Shown here: positions 1 to 19,787 of the stretch, in pieces
Position numbering within the stretch: position 1 is the first letter of the stretch
Layout of the letters: each line of letters begins with the position of its first letter
IMG/VR virus record: IMGVR_UViG_3300010413_000009
Span: 81,629 to 101,415 of that record
Reading direction: 5' to 3' (one strand)
Length of the DNA: 19,787 bases
Origin: a virus
Notes under the pieces: generated by a model
Told to the model about the DNA's origin: nothing
The model's input: the letters and a program-made list of their open reading frames with translations, nothing else
The model's database searches: none
Program-made: the position numbers and the translations under genes

Positions 1-1588
1 ATTCACTGATGATTTTGTTCGCGAGTTTCGGATACCATTCCAAATCACGGTTCGCGATCGAGTCATCGTCGAACCAAACGAGCCAGTTCGTCTCGATTGG
101 GTTAGTTTCATCCCAAAACAGCTGCCTCATGGCTGGATATTTCTTCCTGTTGCCATCATTCAGCACCAAAGTATGCACTGTTCCGTCGTCACGCAGCCGT
201 TCAAGCCATGCGCGCGTCTCCATACAGAGCTGATTCGTCACAATCCGTATCTGTCGTCGCAGCGGAGACGTCGTTTTGAGAATGCTACCGAGGCACGCAC
301 GGTGCATGTCTGGGTAATTTCCGTACATCAGTATGCAAATCGTCATCGACCCGCCGATAATCGGGTCATCGAACGGGTCTTCGCGCAATATCGGTGTCAC
401 CGGCTTCGCCGCTTTGTGCCGCTGCTGCGAAAATGCGTTGATGAGTGTTGGTACGCCCGGCTCTGCGGGCGCTGCAGCCGGCTTTACGGCCTCCAAAAGA
501 GTCTCAAGAGGGGCAAAAAGGTCGATTTTCGTAGGATGGAGCACGCGTTTTGGCGGAATTGGTGCATTAGGTAGGGCCAAATCGCGCGGGCTGCCAATAG
601 CTGGCAGTGTTCCATCCTTGTAGTAGCTCATTACCGCCTCCAAGACGTGTTCTACAGTGATCATGCGCAAGCATTCGGGTATTGTCTGTCCAAAACCATC
701 GTCAACTGGCAGTTTACAGTATGATCGATGCTTGTCCTTTTGGGTATGTAAGACTTTGTTTTTCCAGCACCCGCGATCACGGCAGCATTCGAGCAGTCCC
801 TGGGTATGCAAATAGCGATGTGGCACGCGCACAGACTGTGAGTATGGGCCGAAATTCTCTACACCGACCACATTGACGTAGGCTTCCCACCACCAATGCT
901 CGCGCCCGCCGGCAATGCAGACACAAGGCTTGTCAAAGCACGCAGCCATGTGCATCAGACTCGTGATCGGACAGATAACGCCGTCTGAATGGTGTACAAG
1001 CCATACCAGATCGCGCAAATTCGTCTGTCCGAGTAGATCTAGCACACCATCGACAGGAGGATTGACGCAATCTCTGGAAGTTGCGCCGCATCGTATGAGT
1101 TTCAATCCCGCGTCGCGAAGCTTATTGATCAATTGCTGCCAGCGCGTTGCCGACCACGCCTTCGTTGTGAAGTCTGTCTTGCTGCCAGGCACGACAATCC
1201 AGTAGCGCTCAGCGATCGGGGAGTTCTTGTAGTGCCAATCATCAAGATGCAGGTCACCCTTCGGATACAAGCACGGTACTGGCATGCCTACGCGATGTTC
1301 GAACTCGCGATGGAACGCCGTGACGAAATGCAGTTTGTGGTGATTGGATAGCTTTATGTATCTCCCATAACCCAAATCAACACGCTTGATGTGCCTCGGG
1401 GGTCGACTATGATTGCCCGCGATGTATGGATTATGATCCCACAGTGTTTTGCAGTGTGTAGCAACATGAATTTCGTACTTACCGGGATACGTTAAGGCGA
1501 GATCTCTCGGTAACGCGGTCAGGCAAGTGATATCGCCAGGCGCACACCCGTGTGTAAGCAGGAGCGGTTCTGCTGAATTTGATCCCAT
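1..1588 (-). CDS. Fused glycosyltransferase, partial: N-terminal GT9 (heptosyltransferase-like) domain and C-terminal GT2-like domain. ATG at 1588; the C-terminus lies beyond the left window edge.
   Basis: Hand translation of the minus strand from the ATG at 1588 gives one open frame to position 1, which the ORF track omits because there is no in-window stop. The N-terminus reads MGSNSAEPLLLTHGCAPGDITCLTALPRDL ... WIVVPGSKTDFTTKAWSATRWQQLINKLRDAGLKLIRCGA ... LVHHSDGVICPITSLMHMAACFDKPCVCIAGG. This matches the GT9 pattern of a GD(v/i) N-terminal segment, a K/T-K-xW acceptor region and an xDxGxMHLAAAxxxPxVxLFG-like C-terminal segment. Further on comes SMTICILMYGNYPDMHRACLGSIL ... NWLVWFDDDS, a GT2-like N-terminal stretch with a DxD motif. 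The start lies 8 nt downstream of the preceding gene's stop. Confidence 0.6.
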   Translation of the reverse strand, partial: MGSNSAEPLLLTHGCAPGDITCLTALPRDLALTYPGKYEIHVATHCKTLWDHNPYIAGNHSRPPRHIKRVDLGYGRYIKLSNHHKLHFVTAFHREFEHRVGMPVPCLYPKGDLHLDDWHYKNSPIAERYWIVVPGSKTDFTTKAWSATRWQQLINKLRDAGLKLIRCGATSRDCVNPPVDGVLDLLGQTNLRDLVWLVHHSDGVICPITSLMHMAACFDKPCVCIAGGREHWWWEAYVNVVGVENFGPYSQSVRVPHRYLHTQGLLECCRDRGCWKNKVLHTQKDKHRSYCKLPVDDGFGQTIPECLRMITVEHVLEAVMSYYKDGTLPAIGSPRDLALPNAPIPPKRVLHPTKIDLFAPLETLLEAVKPAAAPAEPGVPTLINAFSQQRHKAAKPVTPILREDPFDDPIIGGSMTICILMYGNYPDMHRACLGSILKTTSPLRRQIRIVTNQLCMETRAWLERLRDDGTVHTLVLNDGNRKKYPAMRQLFWDETNPIETNWLVWFDDDSIANRDLEWYPKLANKIISE

Positions 1589-1596
1589 GAACAAAT

Positions 1597-2679
1597 TCAC
1601 CACTTCCAGATAGGACAGTGCTCCGTTGCTATCCTGATTTTGTTGCGCAGCGGCCGATTTTTGTCAAACGCGTCTAGCATCGCTGGCAAATTTGGCTCAT
1701 TGCCGTGTATTCCGCAACCGCAGCGCGTGCAATACCCGTCCCAGTAGTAAAAACATGGCTGACAGTGGCCGGTGTAGCAATCCTCCACTTCAGCGTCTGT
1801 CCGAAGTGGCTTTCCTTCTTGCAGCCAGTTGTTCAGCGCGATTTCGAGCAACTTCTTCTTCGAAAGAGGCGATGTTTCGCTCCGCGGGCGCCTGCCGAGC
1901 GGAGTCATCGCTTGTGGAAACGCAACACGCGGTCTGAATATCGGCAATGGGCCGTGCAGGGTAATACTTGGGTCAAAATCGGGCAAATCCACGCCCAAAA
2001 TACGTGATGCCGCGTCCAATTTGGCACTGATGGCGGCATCATCGGAGATCATGACGCGATTTAGGTGCAGCCAACACGGCTCGCACCATTCGAAGTGGTA
2101 TTTAGCCGGATTTTCCAGCCTGTCGAAGTATTTCACCCTGTCCGGTACCCGTATAAGGCGATGCGCCGCGTACGATTTGGCTGTCGCAGGGCCGCGCAAC
2201 CTGTTTTGCGCGATATTGCTCTTCTGTATTGCTGGTGCCTCGGTATCGAACGCCAGCCATGTAGGCCAAAATCGCTGCTCGCCGTCACGTAACTGCCCCC
2301 GCCCGGCTATATCATTGCCGTCTAGCAGCAAACTTACGTCCAGATTTCTTGTCGGCAGCGTGTCGCTCTGCAATACGGCAATAAATCGCTCTGGTTGGGT
2401 TATCGCATGCCGTTTTAATTGAGCAATGATGGCCCAGACACGCCGTGTCAGATGCAGCCCGCCAATATCCTCCGAGATTTCAAGGATTTCGACGCCAAGT
2501 TGTGCCGCTGCGTCGTCTAATAAGCATCTTTCACCGGCCGAAAAGGCTGGATCGCCGCCAAACGGGCCCTGAACGACGATAATTCGCGTCAAATCGGCCA
2601 CGTGTTTGCGTAAAAGGCTAATTTGCGCGGGTAACGTGCGGAATCTATGTGAAACCAACGTGTAAACTGCTGTGCTCAT
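1597..2679 (-). CDS. Hypothetical protein with a C-terminal Cys/His-rich cluster, putatively metal-binding. The start is placed at ATG 2679 rather than the track's 2775.
   Basis: The track ORF 1597..2775 begins with a TTG codon (caa at 2773-2775) and would overlap the upstream gene by 92 nt. The in-frame ATG at 2679 (MSTAVYTLVSH...) sits just after the upstream stop at 2684-2686. The C-terminal segment reads CYTGHCQPCFYYWDGYCTRCGCGIHG. No family was recognised from memory. It is co-directional and contiguous with its neighbours. Confidence 0.45.
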   Translation of the reverse strand: MSTAVYTLVSHRFRTLPAQISLLRKHVADLTRIIVVQGPFGGDPAFSAGERCLLDDAAAQLGVEILEISEDIGGLHLTRRVWAIIAQLKRHAITQPERFIAVLQSDTLPTRNLDVSLLLDGNDIAGRGQLRDGEQRFWPTWLAFDTEAPAIQKSNIAQNRLRGPATAKSYAAHRLIRVPDRVKYFDRLENPAKYHFEWCEPCWLHLNRVMISDDAAISAKLDAASRILGVDLPDFDPSITLHGPLPIFRPRVAFPQAMTPLGRRPRSETSPLSKKKLLEIALNNWLQEGKPLRTDAEVEDCYTGHCQPCFYYWDGYCTRCGCGIHGNEPNLPAMLDAFDKNRPLRNKIRIATEHCPIWKW

Positions 2680-2683
2680 GATC

Positions 2684-4534
2684 TCAACTGATTGATACCG
2701 TCGGAACTTGCCCTGTTGGGCTGCAGCCTTCCTGCACAATGTGCATCGTATATGTGCCTTGTGGCGGGCAACCAAACACCGCCGTGCGCGGCTCGCTCAT
2801 CCAGGCAATTTCCTCGAGATTTGTTTCAGGATCGCACGATGTGCCGCCAATCTCTAAGTACCAGACATCGCAATCGCACGTCAGATTGACCCAGATAATG
2901 ACACATTCATAGCCGCTGGGGTATTGTTCATCATAGTAGTAGCATGTACCGTCCCCATTCGTCGTCTTCGCCGGGGTGAATGTTGCATTGAAAATATCAC
3001 AATACCCGGTGAGCCCGCTTACAGAGATGGTTTTGGATGATGGGCATTCGCTACATGTCGAGCAGTCCGTGCAGCACGCCAATGATGGCGAACCTGTGGC
3101 CGAGCCGGTCGCCGTGAACGTAGCGGCACTCGGCAATTCGAGCTCGCCGACATCGCCCTCGTAGGCATCAGTAACTGGCGTGCAATTGCTATTGGTTGTG
3201 AAATACCATGTGCCTGTAGTGTCGCCGTTATCGACGTAGCACAAATACCAGCTCCCGCCGTATTGCTGATACTTCGGCATGCCGTTGTAATAGCCGACAA
3301 TGTTGTAGTAGCCAACAACACTCTCCGAGCATCCGCTACAGGTTACTTCATAACCACCGGAATCACACGGGCCGACGCTAGAACTCGACAACGAGCTTAA
3401 TGATTCTGATGAAAGACTACTAAACATCGAGGACGAAGACGACGGAGGGCATTCGCAGTACCAAACAATCTCGCCATAAAAGCGTCCCGTGATGCACGGA
3501 TGCCCGTGATGATCGGTACCGCTATAAAACCTCCACCAACCTTCACCGCCACCGCCGCCGCCTCCATCAGGACATTCGTCAGGATCACCCCAGGTGACCA
3601 GACATTCGCTAGCCATATCGTCTTTACATTGGCACCAGATCCACGCGCTGCAATCACCGGATACCGCGCAAGCGCCACCATCTTGCCCGAGAACATTATC
3701 AGGCGTGGTATCTGCAACGATCGGCAGCTTCCCGATTTGCCAAGCGAGTGTGGGAAAGTCTGGATATGGGCAGCTTTCGAGCGACTCGACAAGACTGCTT
3801 AGGCTACTGCTGAGGCTGCTGAGACTGCTGAGACTGCTGAGACTTGAGGATGGCGTACAGCAATAACCAACCATCAGCGTTTCGCCATAGAACCGCCCAA
3901 CTACTGGCGGCGGGCCAAGCTCATTGCAGCCACCCCGAAACACCCAATGACCGCTGCCAGTAGCTCCCGCTGGACACTCTTCTGTGTTTGGGCAATCAGG
4001 TTTGCATCCGGCGATCGTGTTGTACTCAGGATCCCCGGCGCATGGGCACCATGTCCAAACACCAAGTGCGCCCTCGCCGCATTCTTCCTCCGGAAAGATA
4101 AGCTGTGGTACGTAGGTGCTGCCTTGATAATCGCCAATGGGCGTATTCCAAGGAAACGGCGGCGATGGTATATCCGGACAGACGTATCCGTACTCTGATC
4201 TGTATGACCAATGACTGCCGCCAGAAATGGTCTCGGTAGGGCAGCGACAGATTATCGAGACCTCGCCATAGAACGTGCCGTCATAGCACGGCGGCCCAAG
4301 ACACGGATCACCGCACTTGATGCTCCACGTGCCCTCACCCGCACATGCAGTATCGCATGTGTCGTCCATCGGGCATGAGCTATCAGACCGTATGCACTCA
4401 CTTGTGAGCGGACCGCATGCGCACCAGACCCAGATAGAGCATTCTGAATCTTCGTTGGTCGGATATTCAGTATCCGTAGGCGTGTCGTTGAATGTCGGCC
4501 ACGTAGGTAACCCACACGTCGGATCGATCGGCAT
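2684..4534 (-). CDS. Very cysteine-rich 616-aa protein with a triplicated Cys/Trp module, Ser-Leu tandem repeats and a poly-Gly run. Candidate receptor-binding fibre or adhesin-like protein. No N-terminal signal peptide is evident.
   Basis: ATG at 4532-4534 follows directly after the upstream TAA: TAATGACCGATG. Three paralogous segments are present: (i) SIWVWCACGPLTSEC...TFYGEVSIICRCP, (ii) GVWTWCPCAGDPEY...GRFYGETLMVGYCCTPSSSLSSLSSLSSLSSSLSSL and (iii) SAWIWCQCKDDMASEC...GGGGGGGEGWWRFYSG...GRFYGEIVWYCECPPSSSSSMFSSLSSESLSSLSSSS. The C-terminal region carries additional CxC, CxxC and CDCD motifs. The protein contains dozens of Cys residues. Confidence 0.5.
   Translation of the reverse strand: MPIDPTCGLPTWPTFNDTPTDTEYPTNEDSECSIWVWCACGPLTSECIRSDSSCPMDDTCDTACAGEGTWSIKCGDPCLGPPCYDGTFYGEVSIICRCPTETISGGSHWSYRSEYGYVCPDIPSPPFPWNTPIGDYQGSTYVPQLIFPEEECGEGALGVWTWCPCAGDPEYNTIAGCKPDCPNTEECPAGATGSGHWVFRGGCNELGPPPVVGRFYGETLMVGYCCTPSSSLSSLSSLSSLSSSLSSLVESLESCPYPDFPTLAWQIGKLPIVADTTPDNVLGQDGGACAVSGDCSAWIWCQCKDDMASECLVTWGDPDECPDGGGGGGGEGWWRFYSGTDHHGHPCITGRFYGEIVWYCECPPSSSSSMFSSLSSESLSSLSSSSVGPCDSGGYEVTCSGCSESVVGYYNIVGYYNGMPKYQQYGGSWYLCYVDNGDTTGTWYFTTNSNCTPVTDAYEGDVGELELPSAATFTATGSATGSPSLACCTDCSTCSECPSSKTISVSGLTGYCDIFNATFTPAKTTNGDGTCYYYDEQYPSGYECVIIWVNLTCDCDVWYLEIGGTSCDPETNLEEIAWMSEPRTAVFGCPPQGTYTMHIVQEGCSPTGQVPTVSIS
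3794..3847. repeat. Imperfect tandem repeat of a 9-nt unit (gag[a/g]ctgct), about five to six copies, inside the Cys-rich CDS. It encodes (SSL)n.
   Basis: The sequence ...actgcttaggctactgctgaggctgctgagactgctgagactgctgagact... is read directly. The reverse-strand frame gives SSLSSLSSLSSLSSSLSSL. A nearby GGC/GGT codon run at about 3537-3560 encodes GGGGGGG. Confidence 0.8.
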
Positions 4535-4540
4535 CGGTCA

Positions 4541-4930
4541 TTAGTCCACGGGAACTGGCGGCGCTTTTACCGCTATGAATTTTGTGAGCTGGTCAACGTC
4601 GATGATGCCTATATGATACCGCCAGTTTTCCTTGCCGTCGAACCGCCAGCAGATAAGTAGCTGCGGTATGGAGTTTGACTTGGTGCGCTTCATGCATTCG
4701 GCTGCAACCTGCCTGTACTCGTCGATATCGATGTAGACGTAAACGATGTCGCGCAAGTTGCCGCGTTTCTCGAGCACCGGCAATACCTTATCCCGCACAT
4801 GATGACACGGTCCGCACCAAGTTGCGCCCAGCATCACGAGCAACGGCTCATCTTCCTTCAGGGCCTTCTGATATGCCTCAGTATACGGATTGGGCGCCGC
4901 GGCGAAGAGCAACAGGATTAGCGCGTACAT
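4541..4930 (-). CDS. Thioredoxin-fold thiol-disulfide oxidoreductase with a WCGPC active-site motif and an N-terminal hydrophobic signal peptide or membrane anchor.
   Basis: The translation reads M(SIM)YALILLLFAAAPNPYTEAYQKALKEDEPLLVMLGATWCGPCHHVRDKVLPVLEK... The segment ALKEDEPLLVMLGATWCGPC aligns with the canonical thioredoxin beta-strand plus WCGPC motif. The hydrophobic N-terminus replaces the first Trx strand, as in TlpA/ResA/DsbE-type membrane-anchored proteins. The track start at 4939 is a GTG (cac); the ATG at 4930 is preferred. The gene overlaps the stop of the upstream 339-aa gene (4936-4938) in either case. Confidence 0.65.
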   Translation of the reverse strand: MYALILLLFAAAPNPYTEAYQKALKEDEPLLVMLGATWCGPCHHVRDKVLPVLEKRGNLRDIVYVYIDIDEYRQVAAECMKRTKSNSIPQLLICWRFDGKENWRYHIGIIDVDQLTKFIAVKAPPVPVD

Positions 4931-4935
4931 GATGC

Positions 4936-5955
4936 TCACATCCCAGTGAAAAGGAGCCCAGTCTGAGGCGGCAGTATATGCCGCAGCATCTCCTCCAGAT
5001 TGTTCAACGAATCGTAGTGCCGCACTTTGATGACAATGCAGCTATCGAGATCGAGCTCGTGCGGAGGTTTCGTCAAAGCAGTGCCACCAGCCATGCCCGC
5101 AGGTACTATGACATTACTGCTAGCACCCAGTTCCATATCTGGCTGAAACTCGCTGATCTCAAAGGATTTGATGAGCGGCGTATTCGCAGGCGGCGTAGAG
5201 CCCACAGGCGCGCCCAGGACGTCGTCCTTGTCGATGCGGTAGATATTGCGCGTCGTGGCTAGAAAGCGCCCACGGCGATCTGTGGCGTCCACAAGGACTG
5301 TTTCCTGCCCGTCGGCAAGCGGCACACCCAGGAACGCGGCCACGGCCCGCTGGAGCCCCCCGGTAGTGGTACCTTTGACATGGCAATCGGCGATAGCATT
5401 GATAGTACGCTTGTACCGGAGATACTCCTCATGCCCGCCTTCGGTGGGTCTTGGAAAGTCGTAGATATAGCCGAGGTGCTTCTCGACGTACCCCCGATCG
5501 AATTGTGCGCGAATTCCCCACAGATAAGCCGTGTCATCGCTGTGCGATATCAAGCTGTCAGTGAATGGATCTTTCACGAATTCTATGATGGATTCGTGAA
5601 TTTGGTAGTCTATCCCTTCATGCAATACCCGCGTCGCGTTTGTGACACGATTCAGCAAGAGCGGCACGCTATACAGCCCCGGCGGCTTCGGAAACAGGCT
5701 CTCGTGATTGTCGCGCGGAAGTTCCAACAGAAATCGGCGCTCAGTATGGTACAGTGGTACCGACAGCCGCCCGGCGCATGCCAGCACTTCCTCGAGATTC
5801 TGGCGCTGCTGCGCGCAAAGCTCAAGATTCGCGCGTACGAGGGCTAGCAGCGGGCTATTACCGGCGTAATACTGTGTCCATAGTGAGCCCAAGAGGGCCA
5901 GAGTATCGCGCGCTTGCTTCTGGGAAAGCGTACCCTTTTGTGGTAGTTCAGGCAT
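4936..5955 (-). CDS. Hypothetical 339-aa protein. It is the first gene after the AT-rich gap and may be a fibre-attachment or baseplate-distal component.
   Basis: ATG at 5953-5955. The gene is co-directional and translationally coupled to the downstream thioredoxin gene. It sits immediately after a gp25-like/J-like pair, where gpI-like or fibre genes sit in P2/Mu-type tail modules. No motif was recognised. Confidence 0.4.
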   Translation of the reverse strand: MPELPQKGTLSQKQARDTLALLGSLWTQYYAGNSPLLALVRANLELCAQQRQNLEEVLACAGRLSVPLYHTERRFLLELPRDNHESLFPKPPGLYSVPLLLNRVTNATRVLHEGIDYQIHESIIEFVKDPFTDSLISHSDDTAYLWGIRAQFDRGYVEKHLGYIYDFPRPTEGGHEEYLRYKRTINAIADCHVKGTTTGGLQRAVAAFLGVPLADGQETVLVDATDRRGRFLATTRNIYRIDKDDVLGAPVGSTPPANTPLIKSFEISEFQPDMELGASSNVIVPAGMAGGTALTKPPHELDLDSCIVIKVRHYDSLNNLEEMLRHILPPQTGLLFTGM

Positions 5956-6133
5956 GGCTTACGTCAGTTTGTATTCGCTGCTATGTACGTATATTTTTGC
6001 ATTATTGAGTTACGCACGCTGTAAATCCTTTAGTACTAAAGACTTACAACGCGGCTAATAGATGCTAAATATTCGTGCATATCGCGGACCCCTCTCTTAC
6101 GTCAATTTCAAGAGTTTATTTAAGCGACACTTT
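5956..6133 (-). promoter_or_regulatory. AT-rich 178-bp intergenic spacer between the Baseplate-J-like gene and the accessory cassette. It is a candidate internal promoter or module boundary.
   Basis: It is the only sizeable non-coding gap in the operon and is markedly AT-richer than its surroundings (ttgtattcgctgctatgtacgtatatttttgcattattgag...). On the transcribed strand it contains TTGAAA, TTGACG and TTTACA-N15-TAATGC-like hexamers, but none gives a clean sigma-70 -35/-10 pair. Confidence 0.3.
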
Positions 6134-7594
6134 TCACGACACCGTTACGTCTTCCGGACGAAGGAAAGCCGCAGTGACCCGGTTGAGAATACGGTCGCCA
6201 CTGACCTGGACCTCCAGTATGGAATCGGGGTCTGGCGCGGCGGCTATGACCCGGAAATCGGTTGGTGCCTCGCCAATCGGCAATCCGTTAACGTAGTTGG
6301 CGATGGCCTGCTGAATTGCCGACTTGTCGGCTTTAGCGCCTCTGCGCAACTGCACGTCGACCTTTATCCACGCAGGTTTTGCAGCGAATACAAGGACGTC
6401 GAGGCCAGGCTGCCGGATTTCCGGGCCATCCAGATAGTCCTGAATAGTTGCAACGTGCGGCATCGCCAGCAGTGTCAGATCAAACCGGCGGAAGCTTTCG
6501 CCTTCGGTCAGCCCGAAAGTCTCGCCGAGTTGCTCGATCTGCAAGGTTGCCGTTTGGTAACGGCTGAATCGCGCCTGCTCATACGTTTCTTCGAGCACTT
6601 TGCAATCGCTGATGCGCAAATCGGCATCGACGGCATGTGCGTCTGCAACATGGTAGAAGCCCGGAGCAGCATCACTATCAACGAACACGCGCCAGACGGA
6701 GCGCTTCTCCTCTTTTGTCACCAATCTCCCCAGAGCAATACTGCCGATTTGCGCAGGGTATGGTTGGCTGCGCAGGTAGATATCGATCCTGCCGCCTTTC
6801 GAGATTCCGTCACTTCCCGCATCCCTCGTCATTTCAGGATCGCCGGCGCCAATGACGGCAATATCCATGATGTCGGGCACGCGCTTTCGTACGAGTGCTT
6901 TGATATTTCCGCGCCCTGCGAAACTCGGAGTAGCAATGCTGGTACGCATCTGCCTGATCAATTCCTCGTTCGATTGTGCGGCAACGCCGCCTGTAAAATC
7001 ATGCGTGGCATAGGCCATATCGAAGCCTACCGGACGGATTGCAGGAACAAGAACATCATGGCGCTTGAGGTTGGCGTCGGGATGCATCGAAGCAGCTACC
7101 ACAGGCACTTGTATCGTGAACTTGCCGTCATCGCGCTCCACAGCGGCGACAGAGTGCCGCGTGAGGCCTACCGACCCGGGCGGCTTAACGCTAATTGGTT
7201 CGCTGACATAGAACAGCTGACCACGCGCGCGGAATTTGCTGTTGAGACCAAAATTGAGCCCGCTGCACCGCGTAAGCACAATAGTGATAGTCCCGGTTGC
7301 CTTGGTTGCCATACGCCGAGAGACACCGTAATTGGACGCTAATGCATCGACAGCCGCGTCGTCGGCCAGCGATGGATCTAGCGCGAGCTCCATCGCAGAT
7401 AGCGAGCGCCGCAGCCGCTCGATAGCCGCCATACTCGCGCCCTGCAACATGGCGTGCAGCCCGGTTACTAGATCGCCAACGACACCGCGACGTACATTCA
7501 AGTCCGGGCATTCCTCGGCGACAAATTGTGCGATCAGATCATGCGCGGCGGTTACCTGCGCATCATCTAATTCATCTGGATTCGGCCAATACAT
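6134..7594 (-). CDS. Baseplate J-like (gp6/gpJ-like) baseplate wedge protein.
   Basis: It is a 486-488-aa protein immediately downstream of a gp25/GPW-like gene, matching the canonical W-J order. The track start at 7600 is TTG (caa). The ATG at 7592-7594 (MYWPNPDELDD...) is preceded by AGGAG-N6 (aacctAGGAGttgcagATG), which overlaps the upstream TAG stop. The family call rests mainly on size and synteny; no diagnostic motif is recalled. Confidence 0.5.
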   Translation of the reverse strand: MYWPNPDELDDAQVTAAHDLIAQFVAEECPDLNVRRGVVGDLVTGLHAMLQGASMAAIERLRRSLSAMELALDPSLADDAAVDALASNYGVSRRMATKATGTITIVLTRCSGLNFGLNSKFRARGQLFYVSEPISVKPPGSVGLTRHSVAAVERDDGKFTIQVPVVAASMHPDANLKRHDVLVPAIRPVGFDMAYATHDFTGGVAAQSNEELIRQMRTSIATPSFAGRGNIKALVRKRVPDIMDIAVIGAGDPEMTRDAGSDGISKGGRIDIYLRSQPYPAQIGSIALGRLVTKEEKRSVWRVFVDSDAAPGFYHVADAHAVDADLRISDCKVLEETYEQARFSRYQTATLQIEQLGETFGLTEGESFRRFDLTLLAMPHVATIQDYLDGPEIRQPGLDVLVFAAKPAWIKVDVQLRRGAKADKSAIQQAIANYVNGLPIGEAPTDFRVIAAAPDPDSILEVQVSGDRILNRVTAAFLRPEDVTVS

Positions 7595-7603
7595 CTGCAA
7601 CTC

Positions 7604-8032
7604 CTAGGTTGGTATCGGCAATTTGATTGTCTTTCGTCCGGCTTCCGTGATCAGGACGATCTCCAAGCATACAACATCTGGCTGGATGTCAATGCTGACG
7701 AGATCGAGATCTGTCAGTCGCTGCTCGGGCGGATCATCCGGGACAGCCTCTGCACGAAGCGCGGCGACGATGTAGCTCTTCGATAGCCGAAACTGACCGA
7801 AGACATCCGCCTCAGTGTTGATATCGCCGTGGCGCCATGCCGAGATGAACGGGCACGCACGTTCCACGCTGCGCCCGAACGAATAACGTGCGCTCTGCGG
7901 TTCGGTTAGTAACACGCACATGACCCGCTGGACGAGTTCGTCCATGCCGTTAACCGCATCACAACCGTCATCAAACCATGGCAGGACGAAATCGTTTTCA
8001 TCGACACGCCATGCCGAGATGTCATTATTCAT
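7604..8032 (-). CDS. gp25/GPW-like baseplate wedge protein.
   Basis: The 142-aa protein contains LTEPQSARYSFGRSVERACPFISAWRHGDINTEADVFGQFRLSKSYIVAALRAEAVP followed by a C-terminal beta-strand-like LVSIDIQPDVVCLEIVLITEAGRKTIKLPI. This resembles the T4 gp25 pattern of a ...RxFxPxFG... loop, then an ExxIxxAIxxxEPR-like helix, then hydrophobic C-terminal strands. The size is typical. The ATG overlaps the upstream stop as ATGA. Confidence 0.55.
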   Translation of the reverse strand: MNNDISAWRVDENDFVLPWFDDGCDAVNGMDELVQRVMCVLLTEPQSARYSFGRSVERACPFISAWRHGDINTEADVFGQFRLSKSYIVAALRAEAVPDDPPEQRLTDLDLVSIDIQPDVVCLEIVLITEAGRKTIKLPIPT

Positions 8033-8469
8033 GATGTATCAAGCAGCTCTTGTACGTAGCCTTCGACGGATGCTTTGTGGACGCCGTACGTTACATTACC
8101 ATGCGCTCCGCGGCGTGCCGCAAGCAACATGAGCGCGCGCGTCGGCGTTCTGTGCCGATCCCTGAACGCACGCTCCATCATGCCCATGTAGCAAATCTCG
8201 AGGTTGCGCCCCATTGCTACTTTGCTTTTGTTCTCCCCGGTGCCCGCATATTCCGCACTGTAACCAGAATTGGACGTAGTCCGATTGAACGGATCGCCCA
8301 TATTCGGAATGTCGACGGGGTTGAACGTCCACCCGCCTGTATATCCGGCAGGAATCATCCAGAAGCGCTGCGTGCCCGGCGGCGATTGCTGTAGATAACC
8401 GGAGATCGCCTGTCCGAATGTCGCCATGTCGTCCATTAGCGACGAAAATTGTGGGTTTACACTGGCCAT
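8029..8469 (-). CDS. Hypothetical 146-aa protein, a possible small baseplate or spike component.
   Basis: ATG at 8467-8469 overlaps the TAA of the sigma gene as TAATG. Its stop overlaps the gp25-like start as ATGA. Its position is immediately upstream of the gp25-like gene. Confidence 0.4.
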   Translation of the reverse strand: MASVNPQFSSLMDDMATFGQAISGYLQQSPPGTQRFWMIPAGYTGGWTFNPVDIPNMGDPFNRTTSNSGYSAEYAGTGENKSKVAMGRNLEICYMGMMERAFRDRHRTPTRALMLLAARRGAHGNVTYGVHKASVEGYVQELLDTS

Positions 8470-9209
8470 TAGAGGATCTCCAGGGATTCACGCTGATCGA
8501 TTTTTCGCTGTATTTGTGCCATTCTGTGGCTCACGGCAGCTGGGCTGATTTTCAGCTGTGATGCGACCGCAATCGGTCTCGTTTTCGGATGTCCGTGCAA
8601 TCCGAGCACGCGCTCCATAATGAACTGGTTCGTAGGGTCAAGATCATCATAGACGAATTCCAGCCATGCGTCATGCTCTTCAGTGATGGGGCGCACGCGC
8701 GGATCGTACATACCAGCCCCTTCCTCGCCTGGACGCGTAATTGTGCCTGTGGCAAGCGGACGTCCGCTGCCGCGAATGTATTTCAACCGCTTCATCGACA
8801 GCCCGGTGTAGTCGGCGATTTCGTTATCGGATGGTGGACGTCCAAGCCGTTCCTCCAATTCCCGTGCCGCCGCCTCTGAACGCATCTGGTCGAGCGCAAC
8901 CTGCTCTGGGACGCGAATGATCTGTCGATGTTGTGATGCTAGCCGGCGCAATCGCTGCAATCGCGACATCAGATGTGTTTTAAGTGGGCCTTTGGCCGGG
9001 TCGTAAGAGGCCATTGCGTTTGCGGCCAGCCGCTTTGCCTGCGACTTCATGGTTACGCCGCGGGCTGACGGGCCGGCATAAGTTCGCAGTGCTGTATTCA
9101 GCACCGGATCGATAGCTTTCAGCATACGCCCCATGTTAGTTGGCGAAGGATCGTCTAGCCACGTGCTGTATGGTTTCTGCAGTTCTGGTTCCAGTAGGTT
9201 CTTTGGCAT
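8469..9209 (-). CDS. Sigma-70 family RNA polymerase sigma factor of small (group 3/4-like) size, embedded within the tail gene cluster.
   Basis: The segment KTHLMSRLQRLRRLASQHRQIIRVPEQVA fits the region 2.4/3.0 pattern (RxIRxPxH). The segment LGRPPSDNEIADYTGLSMKRLKYI resembles region 3/4.1. The C-terminal NQFIMERVLGLHGHPKTRPIAVASQLKISPAAVSHRMAQIQRKI is a region 4.2 helix-turn-helix. The start has a GAGGT Shine-Dalgarno 7 nt upstream (TGAGGTAGCCACGATG), which overlaps the upstream gene's TGA stop. Confidence 0.7.
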   Translation of the reverse strand: MPKNLLEPELQKPYSTWLDDPSPTNMGRMLKAIDPVLNTALRTYAGPSARGVTMKSQAKRLAANAMASYDPAKGPLKTHLMSRLQRLRRLASQHRQIIRVPEQVALDQMRSEAAARELEERLGRPPSDNEIADYTGLSMKRLKYIRGSGRPLATGTITRPGEEGAGMYDPRVRPITEEHDAWLEFVYDDLDPTNQFIMERVLGLHGHPKTRPIAVASQLKISPAAVSHRMAQIQRKIDQRESLEIL

Positions 9210-18867: not shown

Positions 18868-19787
18868 CTAGGCAATGACTTTCTGATGAATCTCCAACGT
18901 GGACCCGCCCAATCCGTGTCCGTACGGCTGTGGCACGGTCAACTTGACGTTAAGCACAAGGCTTCCTTCGAGGTAGACGTGACGTCTTACAACCTCAACT
19001 GCTCCCGCCACCAGCTGGGGACCGATCGTCGAAGCGCGCCTCCCAGCAAGGCTATCCAGCTTCGCCCGCACTTTCTGTACCAGACGGCTGCGGAACCGTT
19101 GTGTGGCTGACGTTGTCATGATGGCGCGGCTGAGCTCGGTACGCAATACCTTGTTGATCGAGTCAAGGTTGGTGACCAGAGCTTCGTCGTATGCCGCTGG
19201 GTCGACATGGTCGGCGGTCGTTACACCGCGACGCGTCACCACGCGCCCGGATTTGTTGGTCAAGATCCAGACACCACATTCTGCCATCATGTCGAGCTGA
19301 TCCTCGCTGAAATGCGCGACATCTACGAAAGTAATGCCCGGCACTTCAACATCTGTCAGCGCACGATGCGGGGCGCATCCGGAACGTAGGCCAGCCAGCG
19401 CGGCACACAAATGCCACCCTGCTACGACCTCCGAGCCCGATAGCGCTTCTGCGGGCCATACGGCCCGTACTCGCTTATTATTCAGCGCTGCTGCACGATT
19501 TGCAACGACTCCGGCAGCATCATCTGCTTCTAGCCTGCGCCAAACTTCGATGTGCGTTGCCACACTGTTTGGTGTCAGGCCACCCTGTACCGTAAGCGCG
19601 TCCTCGCTCACGATGTCCTTCACGACGAATTCCTCATACTCGTCGTCGCCATAACGCAGGATGTCGCCAGGGCGCACACCCAAGCGCATGAAGCCTGCAT
19701 CACCGGCCGGTACTTCGACTACAGCGCCCTCCGCTGTGGACGTAATCACAGCCTGAAGTGGCTCAGGATCGCCGCCAGCGACGATTA
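18868..19787 (-). CDS. Contractile tail sheath protein, C-terminal part. The N-terminus lies beyond the right window edge.
   Basis: The track start at 19749 is a GTG (cac). The frame stays open to the window edge (…IVAGGDPEPLQAVITSTAEG…). The C-terminal region fits the phage-sheath family pattern: RAVWPAEALSGSEVVAGWHLCAALAGL compares with YYPW...cGhvAGviArtD, and AECGVWILTNKSGRVVTRRGVTTA compares with gINpiR.fpGrGpvVWGARTL. The segment YDEALVTNLDSINKVLRTEL compares with W.YinVRRL..yIe.Si. A tube-sized gene lies directly downstream. Confidence 0.6.
   Translation of the reverse strand, partial: IVAGGDPEPLQAVITSTAEGAVVEVPAGDAGFMRLGVRPGDILRYGDDEYEEFVVKDIVSEDALTVQGGLTPNSVATHIEVWRRLEADDAAGVVANRAAALNNKRVRAVWPAEALSGSEVVAGWHLCAALAGLRSGCAPHRALTDVEVPGITFVDVAHFSEDQLDMMAECGVWILTNKSGRVVTRRGVTTADHVDPAAYDEALVTNLDSINKVLRTELSRAIMTTSATQRFRSRLVQKVRAKLDSLAGRRASTIGPQLVAGAVEVVRRHVYLEGSLVLNVKLTVPQPYGHGLGGSTLEIHQKVIA

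Follow-up and report, generated by a model that had tools for sequence, protein, structure and literature searches.

A GT9–GT2 fusion glycosyltransferase with a TibC-like cysteine finger in a phage tail module

We analysed a 19,787-nt stretch of viral DNA (IMG/VR record IMGVR_UViG_3300010413_000009, positions 81,629 to 101,415), referred to here in its full length as the window, the left edge of which is occupied by a glycosyltransferase gene that closes a phage tail module. This gene lies on the minus strand and extends past the left edge, and its frame runs without a stop over 529 codons, from an ATG at 1586-1588 to window base 2. A preliminary description of the window had proposed that it encodes one polypeptide joining a GT9 heptosyltransferase-like domain to a GT2-like domain, and the peptide strings cited there (GDITCLTALP, MHMAACFDKPCVCIAGG, DDDS, ECCRDRGC and CKLPVDDGFGQTIPEC) are all found in this frame. 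The window matches, letter for letter, the reverse complement of a segment of a 36,026-bp metagenome contig (JGI 3300009506 Ga0118657_10001786; its coordinates carry the prefix L001), on which the complete open reading frame (ORF) spans 667 codons (L001:9683-11686), the window holding codons 1–529. The JGI gene call begins at an internal TTG (561 residues, P0001), whereas the homologues begin at the same Met as the 667-residue ORF. The start codon stands 8 nt past the stop of the preceding ORF, with a GGAAGTGGTGA stretch 9–18 nt upstream of it. A scan of window positions 1–8000 for promoter and terminator consensus sequences returned counts at chance level, which neither support nor contradict co-transcription.

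The fusion frame is confirmed. An assembly or frameshift artefact was ruled out: there is no stop or frameshift between the domains, two contigs carry the identical protein sequence, and the ORF is continuous in more than 100 homologues of 600–750 residues that have both domains. A domain scan of the window protein with hidden Markov models (HMMs) assigned the N-terminal domain to GT9 through a Pfam match to PF01075 over residues 83–237 (50.1 bits against a cutoff of 22), and the same family is matched by 51 of the 51 aligned homologues. The structure of the protein was predicted with two overlapping AlphaFold2-type models, of residues 1–529 (with 57 homologues) and residues 107–667 (P0001), which are monomers and leave the relative packing of the domains outside both. 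The model of the 529 window-encoded residues (mean predicted local distance difference test score (pLDDT) of 91) consists of a GT-B domain (residues 1–330) whose fold is closest to solved GT9 structures, a linker (about 331–405) and the Rossmann-like start of a second domain.

Conservation was read from three alignments of 35–57 homologues with 35–70% identity to the window protein. Ten positions are invariant in all three (K137, G168, G203, R229, E230, H257, C268, C274, C291 and C306); for K143, T209 and H213 this holds in two alignments, the third showing at least 90% conservation. The aspartate of the PGD motif (residues 17–19), D19, varies nowhere in the N-domain alignment and reaches at least 90% conservation in both full-length alignments. 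Its counterpart in WaaF is the GD aspartate, and K143 aligns with K192 of WaaF/WaaC (the K-x-W lysine) and with K230 of TibC. In WaaC, D13 is the catalytic base typical of GT9 and K192 the donor-phosphate lysine; the corresponding pair in TibC is D110 and K230 (PMC4358343). The catalytic Asp and Lys that the preliminary description had singled out for comparison with WaaC and TibC are conserved in the window protein.

The top sequence-level matches of the family are WaaF, WaaC and WaaQ, some sources label homologues 'ADP-heptose:LPS heptosyltransferase' (LPS, lipopolysaccharide), and characterised GT9 enzymes other than BAHT are all LPS-core heptosyltransferases. On these grounds the protein could be taken to remodel the host envelope, adding heptose and then a hexose to a lipid-linked or LPS-core acceptor and so changing the surface of the infected cell, for example to block superinfection or the re-adsorption of progeny, in the manner of seroconverting phage glycosyltransferases, an explanation that we consider unlikely. 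Kinship with the WaaC, WaaF and WaaQ or TibC/AAH families, which the preliminary description had invoked, did not extend to equivalog membership and was rejected, as NCBIfam scores are far too low; for the LPS heptosyltransferase models they are 28.8 versus a cutoff of 467 (RfaQ), 26.3 versus 170, 24.7 versus 134.6 and 21.4 versus 185.3. By any curated model, then, it is not an LPS heptosyltransferase. WaaC, WaaF and WaaQ are moreover single-domain proteins with genes in LPS core operons, unlike the two-domain window protein.

A second separation from the LPS enzymes lies in the C-terminal lobe of the GT9 domain. The preliminary description had remarked on Cys pairs in this domain and, as speculation, on a likeness to the iron finger of TibC. 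C268, C274, C291 and C306 prove to be invariant across 35–57 homologues, and three of the four align with Cys residues of the TibC finger. In TibC, iron is held by Cys339, Cys342, Cys358 and Cys370, and the finger also contributes to recognition of the protein substrate (PMC4358343). With tibC taken from enterotoxigenic Escherichia coli (ETEC) H10407 (L156:18640-19860), hhalign matched the translated protein to a profile of 35 N-domains at a probability of 76% (E = 2.2e-5, 204 columns; family residues 78–318, TibC residues 174–385). In this alignment C274 pairs with TibC C342 within a common GCW motif, C306 with C370 within a common C..(L/M)IT motif and C291 with C358 in the absence of any common motif, whereas an indel of six columns puts C268/C269 and TibC C339 out of register. 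Beyond the equivalent strand WaaC is left with only about 31 residues and therefore cannot hold such an insertion. Because the alignment runs through the finger and WaaC has no place for one, the finger of this family is best read as homologous to that of TibC, and its presence argues against action on the envelope. The two enzymes are further alike in the G-D catalytic Asp, the A-K-x-W lysine and the position of the Cys4 finger in the C-lobe, and TibC/AAH (BAHT; GT9; PDB 4RAP/4RB4; TIGR04414) are, as is proposed for the window protein, cytoplasmic enzymes whose genes adjoin that of the presumed Ser-bearing substrate. In ETEC H10407 we also found a GT9 gene in three pseudogene pieces, with IS3 and IS1 insertions (L155:24503-27668; NC_017633.1 2254503-2257668), which has an inverse-autotransporter gene beside it and lies some 41 kb away from the intact tibC–tibA pair.

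The C-terminal domain is predicted to be a divergent GT2-like GT-A fold, for which the support from sequence is weaker than it is for GT9. PF13641 reaches only 14.7 bits in the window protein (cutoff 27, E = 0.032), under the cutoff; among the 51 homologues, PF00535 is matched by 20 and PF13641 by 15 at E ≤ 0.01, and two of them, P0022 (25.2 bits) and P0053 (23.8 bits), stand above the PF00535 cutoff of 23.3. The model of residues 107–667 has a pLDDT of 88 and shows a full GT-A domain, with Foldseek matches to 6p61, SpsA, TarP, TarS, GtrB and polypeptide GalNAc-transferases at E values of 1.7e-7 to about 1e-5. D507, D508 and D509 are invariant. In the HNGGD motif (H605–D609) G607 is invariant and the other four residues are at least 90% conserved; judged by pattern, it stands where GT2 enzymes have their 'ED' motif and is a candidate for the catalytic base. 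The PF01075 match, the GT-A fold match and the invariant DDD together bear out the coupling, in a single polypeptide, of a GT9 GT-B module to a GT2-like GT-A module with a DxD motif.

The fold matches touch on two of the alternatives. Many GT2 enzymes use lipid-linked acceptors, and GtrB and ArnC are among the matches, as would suit an envelope acceptor; however, the predicted secondary structure of the domain is that of a GT-A core with no extra C-terminal helices like the membrane helices of GtrB-type enzymes (no dedicated transmembrane prediction was made). The best Foldseek matches include the polypeptide GalNAc-transferases (GT27), enzymes that start glycans on mucin repeats rich in Ser/Thr, and the fusion might thus glycosylate protein in another order, the GT-A module initiating on Ser and the GT9 module extending, or with another donor or target, such as a host surface protein. 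We would give this broader alternative little credence. Foldseek E values fail to separate GT27 from GT2, the Pfam matches of the homologues are to GT2, an inverting family, and BAHT enzymes are themselves initiating Ser transferases (PMC4358343).

The Pro/Ala-rich linker between the domains (residues 331–405) is largely of low confidence or disordered (pLDDT 48–86 per 10-residue block). Within this otherwise variable segment a DLFxP element (IDLFAP in the window protein) is conserved, with two short helices of intermediate confidence predicted nearby; it may serve in docking or packing.

The fusion belongs to a sizeable family. A word-indexed search returned 373 relatives at E ≤ 0.001, and the best 120 of the 373 are mostly 600–750 residues long at 97–100% query coverage. 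A phmmer search of the N-domain against 1.84 billion cluster representatives yielded 560 hits with E ≤ 1e-30, a number that rises only to 1,744 at E ≤ 1e-3, from which we conclude that the subfamily is well separated from the classical GT9 enzymes, those of LPS synthesis included, a further point against an envelope role. In IMG/VR, 70 loci carry a gene of the family, many on contigs of 150–226 kb. Neither megablast (window 1–8000) nor tblastn (full protein) found a match among 50,697 GenBank phage records; the phage lineage has no cultured relative there and is essentially uncharacterised. BFVD holds only distant phage GT9-like proteins (13–18% identity), PHROGs gave no match for the fusion protein or ten neighbouring proteins, and literature searches returned nothing on a phage GT9–GT2 fusion or on poly-Ser heptosylation.

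The two halves also occur apart. In phages L151, L154, L144 and L008 they are separate adjacent genes, with 40–57% identity to the respective halves, so the GT9 and GT2 activities are coupled whether fused or not. Among bacterial relatives, the finger-bearing GT9 module is fused to a second GT9 with a methyltransferase, to Mannosyl_trans3, to GT4 or to an Erv1/Alr sulfhydryl oxidase (P0293). The statement that GT9 enzymes normally stand alone therefore holds for the characterised enzymes but not for this subfamily, in which fusion (to GT2, GT4, GT9, methyltransferase, Mannosyl_trans3 or Erv1/Alr) is routine. Variable partner modules are the pattern expected of glycan-elongating enzymes.

The gene lies in a phage tail operon, as had been described: it is on the same strand as baseplate-J-like and sheath-like genes and stands at the end of the tail module (Table 1). 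We clustered the ORFs of 71 viral loci and checked gene order in part of them, and in the loci checked the glycosyltransferase gene closes the baseplate/fibre block. This position within a late structural module, rather than among early or lysogeny genes, is at odds with a seroconverting function. The neighbours also bear on a target that is neither protein nor envelope (phage DNA or a small molecule), or on a GT9 module kept as a non-catalytic scaffold like PnsB1 of the chloroplast NDH complex, possibilities that we regard as very improbable: in the loci examined the genes near the family are structural and none is for DNA modification, action on DNA is not known for any GT9 enzyme, and the conservation of the catalytic Asp and Lys, like the invariance of the two DxD aspartates, speaks against a scaffold.

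Two neighbouring proteins are candidate acceptors. One is a Cys-rich modular protein of 616 residues (51 Cys, 73 Ser), with the Ser/Leu tracts SSSLSSLSSLSSLSSSLSSLV and SSSSSMFSSLSSESLSSLSSSSV at residues 229–249 (3788-3850) and 365–387 (3374-3442). Its family (c36) lies upstream of the glycosyltransferase gene on this contig and in seven further viral loci; of the eight members, five are Ser-rich. On the contig this ORF has been mis-called as two fragments only, of 99 and 235 residues. The other candidate is encoded just beyond the window (L001:11775-12212) by the small conserved gene that comes next after the glycosyltransferase gene in 61 of the 71 viral loci. It has about 145 residues (141–156 in homologues) and was called as 99 residues on this contig; the upstream 46 codons are conserved, so that its true start is the upstream ATG (MSMSSESGSSCG...). 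Many of these small proteins, this one included (MSMSSESGSSCG), open with a short Ser tract followed by Cys-Gly, and homologues called in other metagenomes begin with M-x-x-S(4-8)-C-G. The protein has no Pfam or PHROGs match.

Between the 616-residue protein and the glycosyltransferase lies an ORF of 334 residues with a C-terminal Cys cluster (CYTGHCQPCFYYWDGYCTRCGCG), which has no Pfam or PHROGs match and only six homologues, all on related contigs; it may belong to the same cassette. A thioredoxin-like protein (CGPC motif, N-terminus hydrophobic), encoded directly upstream of the 616-residue protein, may be a folding helper for it. The poly-Ser tracts in the neighbourhood of the family often have Cys at their flanks (CCTPSSS, CECPPSSSS and SSSSCVP are examples), and with the sulfhydryl oxidase fusion mentioned above there may be a link between disulfide chemistry and Ser-tract modification.

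Table 1. Features of the fusion gene and its neighbours, in window coordinates
Feature	Position	Strand	Basis or remark
GT9–GT2 fusion glycosyltransferase, first 529 of 667 codons; runs off left end	1..1588	-	open frame; parent-contig ORF; homologues
GT9-like GT-B domain, residues 1-330	599..1588	-	
D19, catalytic-base candidate, GT9-like domain	1532-1534	-	
K143, K-x-W lysine, GT9-like domain	1160-1162	-	
T209..H213 conserved motif, GT9-like domain	950-964	-	
AGGRE conserved motif, GT9-like domain	899-913	-	
Cys4 finger insertion, residues 257-310, between AGGRE strand and C-terminal helix	659..820	-	conservation; hhalign to TibC
Finger cysteine C268	785-787	-	
Finger cysteine C269	782-784	-	
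Finger cysteine C274	767-769	-	
Finger cysteine C291	716-718	-	
Finger cysteine C306	671-673	-	
Pro/Ala-rich interdomain linker, residues 331-405	374..598	-	low pLDDT; DLFxP consensus
GT2-like GT-A domain, N-terminal part (residues 406-529); remainder outside window	2..373	-	
DxD motif, D507-D508-D509	62-70	-	invariant in alignment
334-residue ORF, C-terminal Cys cluster, between Ser-tract protein and glycosyltransferase gene	1597..2601	-	JGI L001:8670-9674
616-residue Cys-rich modular protein, candidate acceptor	2684..4534	-	follows baseplate genes
Thioredoxin-like protein, CGPC motif, hydrophobic N-terminus	4541..4939	-	PF00085, 33.9 bits
Baseplate-J-like gene	6134-7600	-	same strand as glycosyltransferase gene, upstream
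Sheath-like gene	18868-19749	-	same strand as glycosyltransferase gene, upstream

Ser-rich proteins cluster around the family in phages and bacteria alike. Counting as Ser-rich any ORF with at least 8 Ser in some 12-residue window, we found 28 of 397 ORFs within three genes of the glycosyltransferase gene in the viral loci, compared with 6 of 747 at a distance of six genes or more; the corresponding counts in bacterial loci are 33/364 and 2/302. Families unrelated to one another account for these Ser-rich neighbours, 17 of them in viral and 24 in bacterial loci. In ten bacterial loci, mostly of Planctomycetota, the GT9 gene is followed by a gene for a protein with PfkB and cytidylyltransferase domains (the HldE architecture, CTP_transf_like) and by one for a giant RHS-repeat protein with poly-Ser runs. 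HldE is an enzyme of ADP-heptose synthesis, and the adjacency of this HldE-like gene points, indirectly, to heptose as the donor. The bacterial poly-Ser neighbours are cellular RHS-type proteins, as might be expected were the target something other than a phage structural protein.

Taking together the fusion, its two folds, the conserved catalytic and finger residues, the TibC-homologous finger, the synteny of the loci and the poly-Ser and HldE associations, we favour, at slightly below an even chance, a soluble cytoplasmic enzyme for the two-step O-glycosylation of Ser tracts in phage structural proteins. That two sugars are added in succession to one acceptor, that the donor is ADP-heptose and that the acceptor is a Ser repeat, as the preliminary description had suggested, we infer from the gene neighbourhood. 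The N-terminal GT9 module, with D19, K143 and its Cys4 metal finger, would move heptose from ADP-heptose made by the host to Ser hydroxyls in the Ser-rich tracts of the 616-residue fibre-like protein and the small downstream protein (MSMSSESGSSCG). The tethered GT2-like GT-A module, using the DDD metal/donor site and the GGD candidate base, would then add a second sugar from a nucleotide-sugar donor, and the flexible linker of about 75 residues would let both active sites reach the same tract. The outcome would be glycan-coated linkers on the tail fibre, which might shield it from proteases or host defences or take part in receptor binding; order of steps and benefit, like donor and acceptor, are put forward here as the most economical arrangement of these parts.

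Several results weigh against this two-step reading. When loci were dereplicated at 60% identity by single linkage, leaving 18 viral and 18 bacterial lineages, the Ser-rich enrichment became marginal, at 7/102 versus 6/248 in viruses (P = 0.06) and 7/91 versus 2/132 in bacteria (P = 0.03), and since the signal weakens in this way the association of the glycosyltransferase gene with poly-Ser neighbours is only suggestive. A strong Ser tract lies within three genes in only about a third of loci (25 of 71 viral, 27 of 70 bacterial). Because synteny holds across the phage loci as a whole, the gene may stand next to fibre genes through genome order and not through function. The position of WaaC D261, a heptose-binding residue, is Ile or Val in this GT9–GT2 family, so the donor may not be heptose, as the alternative with another donor would have it; the same substitution, like the finger, sets the family apart from WaaC. 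TIGR04414 (BAHT) scores 22.3 bits against a cutoff of 200, over residues 121–227 only, and PDB sequence searches with family profiles (A1, A4) matched WaaF, WaaC and PnsB1 but not TibC. [quoted passage not shown]

Further differences from TibC lie in the spacing of the first Cys pair (CC-x4-C in the window protein, C-x2-C in TibC) and in the replacement of TibC Trp305 by His. TibC forms a ring of twelve subunits and carries a beta-hairpin thumb; the models of the window protein are of the monomer. The window protein is also phage-encoded and fused to a second glycosyltransferase, unlike TibC/AAH, and the neighbours of its family are poly-Ser tract proteins, whereas those of TibC/AAH are autotransporter beta-helices. 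No gene for an AIDA/TibA-type autotransporter substrate was found near the family, the neighbours being phage baseplate/fibre genes or, in bacteria, RHS and other poly-Ser proteins. Given the missing barrel, the missed HMM cutoff and the lack of an autotransporter neighbour, the enzyme falls outside the TibC/AAH equivalog family, although it appears to work like its members.

Other features of the window and its parent contig are set down here as observations. The baseplate block contains an ORF of 246 residues (8469-9209, minus strand) with a match to Sigma-70 region 3 (PF04539, 27.7 bits against a cutoff of 25.3), which is unexpected in a structural module. An ORF of 426 residues on the plus strand (6062-7342), antisense to the baseplate-J-like gene, has no Pfam match and is probably a chance ORF, given the 56% G+C content of the window. 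Past the window's left end, at a distance of about 1.6 kb, the contig encodes a 571-residue TROVE/Ro60 protein with a vWA domain (PF05731, PF25045; L001:13244-14959), and a tRNA lies 1.3 kb past that gene (L001:16249-16318). An Rfam search of the parent contig at gathering thresholds returned this one tRNA and no Y RNA beside the Ro60-like gene.

We know of no enzyme of the chondroitin polymerase K4CP, heparosan synthase or hyaluronan synthase type in which a GT9 GT-B module is paired with one of GT-A fold. Those enzymes resemble the fusion in carrying two glycosyltransferase modules per chain that add different sugars in succession, and several two-domain bifunctional glycosyltransferases are among the GT-A fold matches; they differ in that they polymerise a free polysaccharide with no link to a protein acceptor. 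To our knowledge, protein O-heptosylation by GT9 enzymes is confined to autotransporter adhesins of a few proteobacterial pathogens. For phages there is a precedent in mycobacteriophage virion glycosylation (Freeman et al. 2023, as cited in PMC12619734), in which phage-encoded glycosyltransferases modify the phage's own structural proteins. The glycans there are described as lying on the C-termini of capsid and tail-tube subunits, and the mycobacteriophage passage in PMC12619734 mentions no GT9/BAHT-type enzyme, poly-Ser tract or two-domain fusion.

A broader proposal, possible but on balance doubtful, is that the finger-bearing GT9 module marks a widespread, hitherto unrecognised system of poly-Ser O-glycosylation found in Planctomycetota, Verrucomicrobiota, Acidobacteriota and Proteobacteria, in which a BAHT-like Ser heptosyltransferase is combined with interchangeable modules (GT2, GT4, a second GT9, methyltransferase or sulfhydryl oxidase). 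This system would have been captured by a lineage of large phages, which would use its GT9–GT2 form to coat Ser/Cys-rich fibre linkers with a defined disaccharide. The main interest lies in a link that may exist between glycosylation and poly-Ser tracts, and in the ease with which it can be tested: ADP-heptose is made by E. coli, and the genes for the enzyme and its candidate acceptors are neighbours, which makes the idea directly testable. A self-contained two-step enzyme that acts on a simple Ser-tract tag could also be of use in glycoengineering. If the family carries out O-heptosylation of poly-Ser tracts, the mechanism of TibC/AAH, iron finger included, would reach environmental bacteria and large phages, in hundreds of protein clusters, the poly-serine linkers of surface proteins in Planctomycetota and Verrucomicrobiota and of phage fibres would gain a function, and glycosylation of virions by the phage itself would be known from a second case with a different mechanism.

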